Below, one piece after another: positions 1 through 2,026 of a DNA stretch of 2,026 nt. A program made the position numbers. This DNA is from a bacterium (GTDB lineage Bacteria; Babelota; Babeliae; Babelales; JAUWHS01). How positions within the stretch are numbered: position 1 is the first letter of the stretch; every line of letters starts with the position of its first letter. The stretch covers positions 1 through 2,026 of the forward strand of contig JBDRFY010000047.1 in the NCBI GenBank assembly GCA_043818275.1. The letters are read 5' to 3'.

Positions 1-2026
1 GCCTGTGTCAGTCGGTTTGTAATTTTTAACTTCTGGTAATTTTACTGGCAAATCTTTTTCTGGAACTGCAACCCAACCACATTTCTCGCAATGAATAAGC
101 GGAATCGGTTCTCCCCAATATCTTTGTCTTGAAAAAATCCAATCACGTAATTTATATTTCGTAACTATTTTTCCACCAACAAATTCTGTGATTTTATTTC
201 TTGCCTCTTCAGAAGTTAAATTACTAAACTTTTCAGAATTTATTAACATTCCATCATCAATAAAAGCGAAATCAGAATTATTCATTAGTCTTTGCCAAAA
301 AACCCAATCGGTTATTTTTGGATAAAGAGTATTTGGAACATCTTTAGCGCTAAACCACTTTGCTTCTTGATGTTCTTTTTCAACTTCATCAACTTCTACT
401 TTTTGTCCACTTTTTAATTCAAAATAAAAACCCGTTAACTCAGCAAAACGATTTTGATCTTTATGTGGCGCAAAATGTTTAGCAAAAATACTTCCTCCTA
501 ATTTTTTTACAAATTTTAAATCAGAAAAACCTGTTTCTTCTATTATTTCCCTTTCAGCTGCTTTTACAATATCTTCATTTTCTTCAATTCCACCAATAAC
601 AAACGTCTTCCAACCATGTTTTTTTGACTCAAGAATTAAATATTCGTCTTTTTCCCAATGTTTAACAATAGCTAAAATACATTTTCTTTCTACTATTTCT
701 TTTTCATTTTTATAACCAAATTCACCGTCTATTATATTCAAAAACGGCGCAATTACTTCTTTTATTTCTAAATTAAATTTCTTCGCAAACTCAAAATCCC
801 TTTCATCATGCGCCGGTACTGCCATTACTGCACCAGTTCCATACTGTGCCAAAACATAGTCAGCAATCCAAACTGGAATTTCTTCATTATTAGCAGGATT
901 AATAGCTTTTACACCTTTTAATTCTATTCCAGTTTTTTCCCCGCCTGCACCAGCTATGCTGGAAGCATTGCGGGCAGGTTTATTTTCTGTCATTCTCTCA
1001 ATCTCTGTTTTACTTTGAGTTAATTTAATATAATCTTCAACTTCTTTTTTATTTTGATAGTTTAATTTTTTAACTAATTCATGTTCAGGCGCCAACACAA
1101 CATAAGTCGCACCAAATAAAGTATCTGCACGAGTAGTGAATACTTTTATTCTTTCAGCCCATCCCTGCCCTTCCCAAAGGGAAGGGTTCTCTAATTCTAC
1201 ATCTATTTTTTTTGTAACTTTATCTAAGTTATTTAAAACTTCTTCATTTTTAAATCTAATAACCTTAAATCCTAAAGTTTCAAGAATTTTTGTTCTTTCA
1301 AAATCTTTTTCTTTTTGTAAATCATGAATATCTCCATCAACTTCTATTACTAAATTTTTTGAAAGGCAAACAAAATCAACAATAAATTTATTTATAATAT
1401 GTTGTCTTCTAAAATGATATACTCTTTCTTTTTTCAAAATCCGCCACAATTTATCTTCTGCCTCAGTCGGATTTTTTCTCATTTCAACAGAACTTTCATA
1501 AAGTAATTTATAACTTTTTGGATCTGCGGTTAAGTAACCAAGCATTTCACCCTTCCCTTCGGGAAGGGCTGGGGATGGGCTGTATTTTATTTTAAATTCA
1601 ATTTCACTTCCCTCACTTCTTCCAATCCAATTTCTTTGTTGTGCTTTTATTCTTTCTGGATAATCAACTAAATCTAAATCTTTATCTAATCTATCTGCGT
1701 ATTTTGTAATTCCCAACATCCATTGTTCTTTTTCTTTTTTTACAGTTTCTGCTCCGCAACGTTCACACACTCCGCCTTGTGCTTCTTCGTTAGCTAAACC
1801 AATTTTACAACTTGGACACCAGTTAATAGTAGACTTATGTTTATAAGCCAAACCTTTTTTAAACATCTGCAAAAAAATCCACTGTGTCCATTTATAATAT
1901 TCTGGATCAGTTGTATTTATTTCTCTTGACCAATCAAAAGAAGGCCCAAAAGACTTCAACTGCCTACGAAACATATCTGTATTTTTCTTTGTAACTTCAG
2001 AGGGATGAATTCCATTTTTTATAGCA

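Follow-up and report, generated by a model that had tools for sequence, protein, structure and literature searches.

A Patescibacteria-type leucyl-tRNA synthetase fragment carrying a putatively exchangeable Nudix domain and a hairpin-flanked DUF559 cassette

Excerpts of PMC13627108 report that aminoacyl-tRNA synthetases make Ap4N and that Nudix enzymes cleave Ap4N asymmetrically, and name LysRS, not LeuRS, as the main producer; one Nudix protein, CT771, is called an asymmetric Ap4A hydrolase in a title cited by PMC5526541. As for sequences that invade coding genes, the Rickettsia palindromic elements (RPE) are portrayed in part of PMC10969869 as palindromic DNA lying in frame in unrelated housekeeping genes and translated there, and Vsr-like homing endonucleases of the EDxHD type are known from extracts of PMC3384342 and PMC2677866. 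In the literature searched, mostly at the level of abstracts and with few subscription journals, no Nudix or DUF559 domain inside a LeuRS is described.

Here we analyse a window of 2,026 nucleotides, the contig C47 of a genome bin that the survey's note assigns to Babelota, which encodes part of a LeuRS with both of these domains inserted. Such LeuRS genes are real, widespread and apparently undescribed. We consider it rather probable that the fragment represents a Patescibacteria-type LeuRS with an exchangeable Nudix accessory enzyme and a selfish, unspliced DUF559 cassette.

The leuS fragment and the insertions in its editing domain

The contig is a single open frame cut at both ends, as the genome-wide survey's note had stated, and its minus strand (1..2025) encodes 675 aa of a bacterial leuS, the best NCBIfam family being TIGR00396 bacterial LeuRS (E 8e-136), far above ValRS and IleRS; because the gene is cut, the TIGR00396 score of 454 lies below the whole-protein cut-off of 548. 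The core is colinear with Thermus thermophilus LeuRS residues 90-462 in the alignment, zinc knuckles included, and the HIGH and KMSKS motifs fall outside the contig and are found in the full-length relatives. Pfam assigns DUF559 to aa 178-278 (E 2.3e-33), the editing domain to aa 290-427 and NUDIX to aa 462-570 (E 1.1e-12), the same domains and ranges as in that note. The note had placed DUF559 before and Nudix after the CP1 editing domain, a layout that the T. thermophilus LeuRS alignment contradicts, as both inserts are nested inside CP1. The fragment aligns to residues 90-237, 237-362 and 375-462, with the DUF559 cassette entering at residue 237 and the Nudix domain replacing loop 363-374, both of which we take to lie within the limits of CP1, and CP1 sequence resumes downstream of the Nudix insert; the Pfam editing domain is found in three stretches, the best of which starts at profile position 20.

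By the same alignment, the FTTRADT sequence (1120..1140, minus strand), which we take to be the threonine-rich editing motif of CP1, is intact, and VPAHDERD (796..819, minus), presumably the editing Asp motif, has both aspartates. The FTTRADT and PAHDERD motifs are retained, by alignment, in 28/28 sampled Nudix-bearing LeuRS genes. There is also a third insert, likewise not in that note, an imperfect 39-nt hairpin at about 941-979 (941..979, minus) that adds 13 aa in frame to a CP1 loop, seen as a 13-aa gap in T. thermophilus LeuRS (z -3.45; 0/200 shuffles), and that is a different repeat, unrelated to the DUF559 arms. The AlphaFold model of the fragment has a mean pLDDT of 72.7, and the linkers encoded by hairpins are disordered. 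The fragment is best explained as a piece of a probably working LeuRS whose CP1 surface loops tolerate large inserts.

Among the relatives, P0020 has a peptide similar to that of the 39-nt hairpin at the same place, and L162 has a similar hairpin near its end. A late CP1 segment about 35 aa short (36-42 aa versus about 75) was also seen in the LeuRS of L080/L001, L121, L131, L136, L145, L157 and L205.

The Nudix insert and its relatives

The late CP1 loop holds a complete Nudix hydrolase domain (about aa 432-585; 271..732, minus), matching PF00293 with 48.5 bits against a cut-off of 21.1, with the Nudix box GGIEENEDIVKAAEREIIEETG at aa 478-499 (529..594, minus). The strict box from G478 and its presence in 89/120 best matches, as first reported, were reproduced on recount, in a search made with a Nudix-bearing query. 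Family residues are R447, W472, K522-x-x-N525-R526, E549 and W557. Across 133 inserts the box glutamates are 98% conserved, and the box residues together with R447, K522, N525, R526, E549 and W557 are conserved at 88-99%; the catalytic residues are near-invariant at an overall identity of about 35%. The survey's view of the Nudix insert as intact is thus upheld by a conserved box, apparent selection and a confident model.

As the whole model retrieved nothing but LeuRS chains in a fold search, the Nudix domain was refolded alone (pLDDT 94.6). Its top structural neighbour is the uncharacterised Enterococcus faecalis protein 2AZW (Z 17.4, rmsd 2.5, 141 aligned), followed by Rv2985 (Z 15.7), the Ap6A hydrolase Ndx1 and DDP1 (15.3 each), and DIPP1, NudI and RppH (14.6-14.8), while Foldseek gave a mixture of NudC, aq_158 and RppH. 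By sequence, the best single-sequence PDB match is CT771 (E 0.0015), and Ap4A hydrolases of lupin and Aquifex are among the profile matches. The domain scores below the NCBIfam cut-offs throughout (RppH, NudB, YtkD and NudE at 21-30 bits versus 103-169); ESM Atlas names the domain NUDIX, with Minisyncoccota as the commonest taxon, and PADLOC gave no match for the query and weak PDC-S07 matches for two free relatives. The domain is a genuine member of the Nudix superfamily, and the family to which it belongs there has no name. Its predicted fold is near those of (di)nucleoside-polyphosphate hydrolases and nothing singles out Ap4A, which may be called a reasonable guess. The substrate is likely to be of the polyphosphate type, with Ap4N as one candidate; an Ap4N-type substrate seems to us somewhat short of an even chance, and other polyphosphates, for instance RNA 5' ends, (p)ppGpp or NTPs, only just short of it.

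The occurrence of the insert was determined in an even sample of 131 genomes from the phylum of genome G001 (Paceibacterota), of which 127 had a LeuRS match, with all 127 regions examined. A Nudix domain sits at the C47 site in 28 of the 123 LeuRS genes in which this site was scorable. The site is enlarged in 35/123, the remainder being one nucleotidyltransferase, three inserts without a Pfam match and three genes whose anchor is shifted by a hydrolase or HAD insert further downstream, one of which (L209) has two Nudix domains and a Ham1 domain in its upstream segment. A profile search found the Nudix in 30/131 genomes at E <= 1.3e-29, with a profile that had been built including many of them. 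The 28 carriers need 19 changes on the core tree, fewer than in any of 200 shuffles (mean 25.5, minimum 20): the Nudix is scattered over the LeuRS core tree with slight clustering. Beyond this phylum, two orders were covered, one around a Bacilli MAG and one around a Clostridia MAG. Long frames with a full CP1-Nudix match were found in 15/81 genomes of the former and 3/81 of the latter, the centre genome counted in each; 34 genomes of the Bacilli order and 23 of the Clostridia order gave no match at the CP1-Nudix threshold. Two MAGs titled Gammaproteobacteria (labels as given) also have a Nudix-LeuRS. The insert, which had been read in the survey as a fixed, lineage-wide trait of Patescibacteria LeuRS, is common, but neither fixed in nor exclusive to Patescibacteria, being patchily present and, it appears, swapped.

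The exchange is best seen among the closest relatives. P0031, which lacks DUF559, is 91/92/88% identical to the query in the three core segments and only 25% identical in the Nudix, while the nearest Nudix to that of the query (63%) is in P0012, which is 73-79% identical in the three core segments. The core clade P0001+P0031+P0022 (support 0.998; SH-aLRT 98 in a quick tree) is rejected in the Nudix tree with p-AU 1.7e-41, a tree of 30 of the 133 inserts picked among near relatives, in which P0031 has a long branch. Among 8778 pairs, those with core identities of at least 85% have Nudix domains that are either near-identical or about 35% identical, and core and Nudix identity are still weakly correlated overall (Spearman 0.41). 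Judged from these alignments and trees, the Nudix appears to be an exchangeable module, swapped between near-identical LeuRS genes.

Members of the family also exist outside LeuRS, as free-standing Nudix-family proteins of 157-166 aa and as proteins of 280-295 aa in which a CP1 shell without editing motifs surrounds an intact Nudix (P0127, P0138, P0169, P0177, P0181 and L223:1498-2328, minus strand). Clusters of the free forms have equal lengths and lie on long contigs, and in genome G279 the CP1-Nudix protein coexists with a plain 810-aa LeuRS; in these proteins selection appears, from the residues retained, to keep the Nudix and not the editing site. In the family, 109/150 best representatives are LeuRS-embedded and 18 more are weak on the LeuRS model, counts that are biased because nested copies were used to build the profile; up to three LeuRS sites are occupied, and second or third Nudix copies exist. 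Elsewhere the same LeuRS loops hold other passengers, namely alpha/beta hydrolase, HAD, Ham1, nucleotidyltransferase and Y1 transposase domains.

Several single loci are recorded alongside. The CP1-Nudix gene of L223 stands behind a radical-SAM-like gene in a tight gene run; a free Nudix of the same family (G257:C1:138341-138796) lies about 7 kb from a Nudix-bearing leuS, and the match in G258 is interrupted by a TGA. The giant LeuRS frames L204 (1795 aa) and L209 (1598 aa) combine HAD, Ham1, Nudix and nucleotidyltransferase passengers, and Nudix-site inserts of about 110-120 aa without a Pfam match occur at L173:1283-1729, L185:1337-1771, L186:1580-2008 and L048:2420-2830.

We propose that the Nudix would be a catalytically active accessory enzyme, a pyrophosphohydrolase whose most likely substrates are nucleoside or dinucleoside polyphosphates. 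As a module it could come, go or be exchanged for another, and homologous recombination in the conserved CP1 flanks would be the simplest route; LeuRS would serve mainly as its essential, always-expressed carrier, and a clean-up of the Ap4N by-product of LeuRS itself is possible. The concentration of the family in LeuRS, its presence at several LeuRS sites and the CP1 shell kept when it is freed argue against a passive carrier only. The first two of these also speak for the more specific alternative that the Nudix is a dedicated LeuRS partner destroying the synthetase's own Ap4A/Ap4N, as a variable accessory rather than a fixed trait. It draws further on the production of Ap4N by synthetases and its asymmetric cleavage by Nudix enzymes (excerpts of PMC13627108), on the match to CT771 with its Ap4A hydrolase title (in the reference list of PMC5526541) and on the lupin and Aquifex profile matches. 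However, although ApnA hydrolases rank high among the neighbours, RppH, NudC, DIPP and NudI score about equally, the best structural match is uncharacterised, and the query domain reaches no NCBIfam cut-off. About three quarters of the genomes in the even sample are without the module and mostly also without a close free copy, and the main producer named in those excerpts is LysRS. YqeK is not depleted in Nudix-LeuRS genomes, where it occurs in 3/15 versus 3/66 others, a trend opposite to replacement (Fisher p 0.07, kin not independent). We thus regard a dedicated partner as unlikely, and retain the exchangeable accessory enzyme as the preferred reading of the Nudix.

The DUF559 cassette and its hairpins

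The DUF559/Vsr-like endonuclease domain (about aa 169-282; 1180..1521, minus) matches PF04480 with 114.8 bits against a cut-off of 20.6 and PDB 3HRL with E 4.8e-17, and has the residues Q208, D217, E228, D230 and H234. It is bracketed by two inverted, GC-rich 25-nt arms, overlooked in the survey, that are 92% complementary, the upstream one at 1549..1573 (minus; z -1.9 to -2.5), read in frame as PSPALPEGKGE (aa 150-160) and disordered in the model (pLDDT < 50 at aa 149-164), and the downstream one at 1163..1187 (minus; z -2.0 to -2.7), read in frame as NPSLWEGQGW (aa 280-289). The share of best matches with PF04480, put at about 40% in the survey, was counted as 41/120 (34%). In 39 LeuRS genes a DUF559 cassette at the same site has flank peptides of the hairpin type and invariant Q208, D217, E228, D230 and H234, of which only Q208 and D217 are independent evidence, as the inserts were selected by the E-x-DG-x-x-H motif.

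In the sisters P0031 and P0022 the site is empty, and the nearest cassette is that of P0002 (82%). The median identity of the cassettes stays flat at 57-60% over core identities of 50-100%, and core and DUF559 identity are weakly correlated (Spearman 0.24). In P0047 the site holds a hairpin peptide on its own. Among 124 scorable LeuRS genes of the even sample, DUF559 occupies the site in the centre genome only; one Cyclobacteriaceae LeuRS also has it there, and in 7 genes the site holds an alpha/beta hydrolase. REP/RAYT systems have a linked Y1 transposase between copies of their hairpins; here, an internally duplicated Y1 (IS200-like) transposase domain lies in frame at the same site in L199 (981-1760, plus strand), without hairpins of the DUF559 type.

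DUF559 relatives were found in 42/251 genomes from this phylum, the unpublished G158 being among the 251, with as many as 7 in one genome; those with hairpin flanks are mostly free-standing and also lie within many unrelated genes. For the best 25 of 78 matches, hairpins of at least -8 kcal/mol strength occur upstream in 19/25 and downstream in 13/25 loci, as against 10/92 control windows. Hairpin-flanked copies lie in frame inside riboflavin synthase, an Elp3-like radical SAM protein, CysRS, RNase HII and a type ISP enzyme, and another shares a frame with Dxr (six hosts; L252, L255, L258, L261, L264 and L266). In G001 the hairpin pattern occurs four times, once as the cassette arm, once in frame further on in LeuRS, once in frame in LepA and once between genes, and none of the four other genomes searched has it. 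Separately, the free-standing DUF559 genes L220 and L221 are followed or flanked by related hairpins in a Cyclobacteriaceae MAG, and in a Patescibacteria MAG by tandem 44-nt repeats that contain such hairpins.

An intein was considered for this insert and rejected, the frame being continuous and no intein family appearing among the Pfam matches at E <= 0.1. Inteins end in His-Asn plus Cys/Ser/Thr, and no such ends were found on the DUF559 insert. The later, selfish in-frame insertion that the survey had proposed is supported by the empty sisters, the flat cassette identity, the hairpins and the unrelated host proteins. We suggest that the cassette would be a selfish Vsr-like nuclease between two polypyrimidine/polypurine hairpins, probably translated unspliced with the host protein, which could insert wherever frame and loop permit and leave or seed solo hairpins, and which may spread among leuS alleles at this one site, probably when the nuclease cuts and the break is repaired.

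In an alternative reading, the cassette is a site-specific homing endonuclease of the EDxHD type whose target is leuS without the insert and which no longer needs an intron or intein. Vsr-like homing endonucleases are known (extracts of PMC3384342 and PMC2677866), the motif E228-x-D230-G-x-x-H234-D235 is intact, and the same site is filled both in the Cyclobacteriaceae LeuRS and in LeuRS genes whose identity is no more than 47-60%; the 23 aa after the cassette are also 96% like P0002, compared with 91% and 87% for the sisters, a difference of 1-2 residues that is very weak evidence. However, the hairpin-flanked DUF559 copies are mostly free-standing and dispersed in many unrelated genes, a pattern for which hairpin-targeted transposition is the better fit; the nuclease also has no separate DNA-binding domain, and the occupied site is rare. 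We hold homing to be doubtful, and the selfish hairpin-flanked cassette is the reading kept below.

Taken further, the cassette might be the autonomous form of an undescribed non-splicing mobile element that recognises and mobilises its own hairpins and generates palindromes of the RPE kind, with its nuclease staying active in essential proteins and its invasion keeping the LeuRS loops recombinogenic, so that leuS would act as an exchange platform for small hydrolases, the commonest among them being an Ap4N hydrolase coupled to LeuRS that can escape as a CP1-Nudix protein. This combination is tentative, and we would sooner expect some part of it to fail than the whole to hold.

Origin of the contig and comparison with known systems

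C47 had been taken in the survey for a Patescibacteria-type contig foreign to the Babelota bin, and the evidence points the same way. The named near matches of its LeuRS are Paceibacterota, Minisyncoccia or Patescibacteria; a GTDB locus scan for LeuRS (at least 600 rows) gives a loose gene sample and not nearest relatives. Its core is 57% identical to the LeuRS of the host versus 85-87% to metagenomic sisters, and the bin, with 4.19% contamination, has the ordinary LeuRS of its own that had been reported (C78:6428-8923, 831 aa, without inserts). That the gene is instead native, a transferred second leuS and no contaminant, would agree with the GC content (31.8% versus 30.8% for the bin) and the tetranucleotide correlation of 0.86, near the 25th percentile of 407 pieces of the same size, tests by which C47 is not separated from the bin. 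Against this, the contig is a gene fragment and nothing else, the hairpin pattern of C47 is found nowhere else in the bin, and 0/30 relatives of the host genome have such a gene, their LeuRS frames being of ordinary length (734-898 aa) throughout with best identities to the C47 LeuRS of 51-60% over an N-terminal piece. A native gene is therefore very improbable; C47 is almost certainly foreign to the bin, most likely by mis-binning of a Patescibacteria-type fragment, and should be taken out of it. A reading of the inserts as assembly artefacts, or as neutral passengers in decay, is hardly credible. Although all sequences come from metagenome assemblies, so that single chimeras are conceivable, and among the sequencing runs listed there is no RNA run with the sequence and one DNA run, which holds short pieces of relatives only and no trustworthy joint, the frame is open throughout, the catalytic residues are near-invariant, the fold is confident and the same architecture recurs in many independent genomes.

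If the proposed reading is correct, the highly conserved LeuRS would be a variable platform in small-genome bacteria, with a swappable Nudix in the editing domain of about one quarter of the sampled Patescibacteria and of some Bacilli and Clostridia, and the connection of tRNA charging with Ap4N turnover, long under discussion, could be tested on one polypeptide. The hairpin-flanked DUF559 would offer a candidate function for a common unknown domain and a candidate mobiliser of coding palindromes. The mosaic nature of leuS in these lineages is also a warning.

Set beside the solved LeuRS of T. thermophilus (1H3N/2V0C) and Escherichia coli (4AQ7), C47 shares the colinear core, the zinc knuckles and the intact CP1 editing motifs, and adds a DUF559 cassette of about 140 aa, the 13-aa hairpin peptide and a Nudix of about 150 aa; none of the solved LeuRS chains among the matches listed aligns over the inserts. 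The Nudix shares fold, box and basic residues close to the site with T. thermophilus Ndx1 (1VC8), Mycobacterium tuberculosis Rv2985 (9CXX), Aquifex aeolicus aq_158 (3I7U), Chlamydia trachomatis CT771 (4ILQ), yeast DDP1 (7AUI) and E. faecalis 2AZW, but is only 16-24% identical to them, has its own signature (R447, KxxNR, E549, W557) and, unlike them, is nested in CP1 and apparently exchanged between alleles. The DUF559 domain belongs to the same sequence family as the DUF559/PRK09767 proteins (PDB 3HRL), which are listed as stand-alone and of unknown function, and hairpin flanks with in-frame insertion are not evident in the entries of the DUF559 papers listed. With I-Bth0305I and the fractured-gene endonucleases, as far as the extracts on them go, the cassette shares Vsr-type catalytic residues and residence in conserved essential genes; those EDxHD enzymes are bipartite and lie in introns, inteins or between split genes, whereas the cassette consists of one small domain, joined in frame to its host and bearing terminal hairpins but no evident splicing element, and, as by its continuous frame and the Pfam matches it apparently lies in neither intron nor intein, it is not classed as an EDxHD homing endonuclease. 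The likeness to RPEs and intragenic MITEs, again as far as the excerpted descriptions go, consists in palindromes in frame in unrelated genes, at two sites of LeuRS and in LepA of G001 and, together with the nuclease, in five other host proteins; RPEs are about 150 bp long and encode a short peptide, whereas the DUF559 cassette places two hairpins around a complete nuclease (about 410 bp) and is accompanied by solo hairpins.
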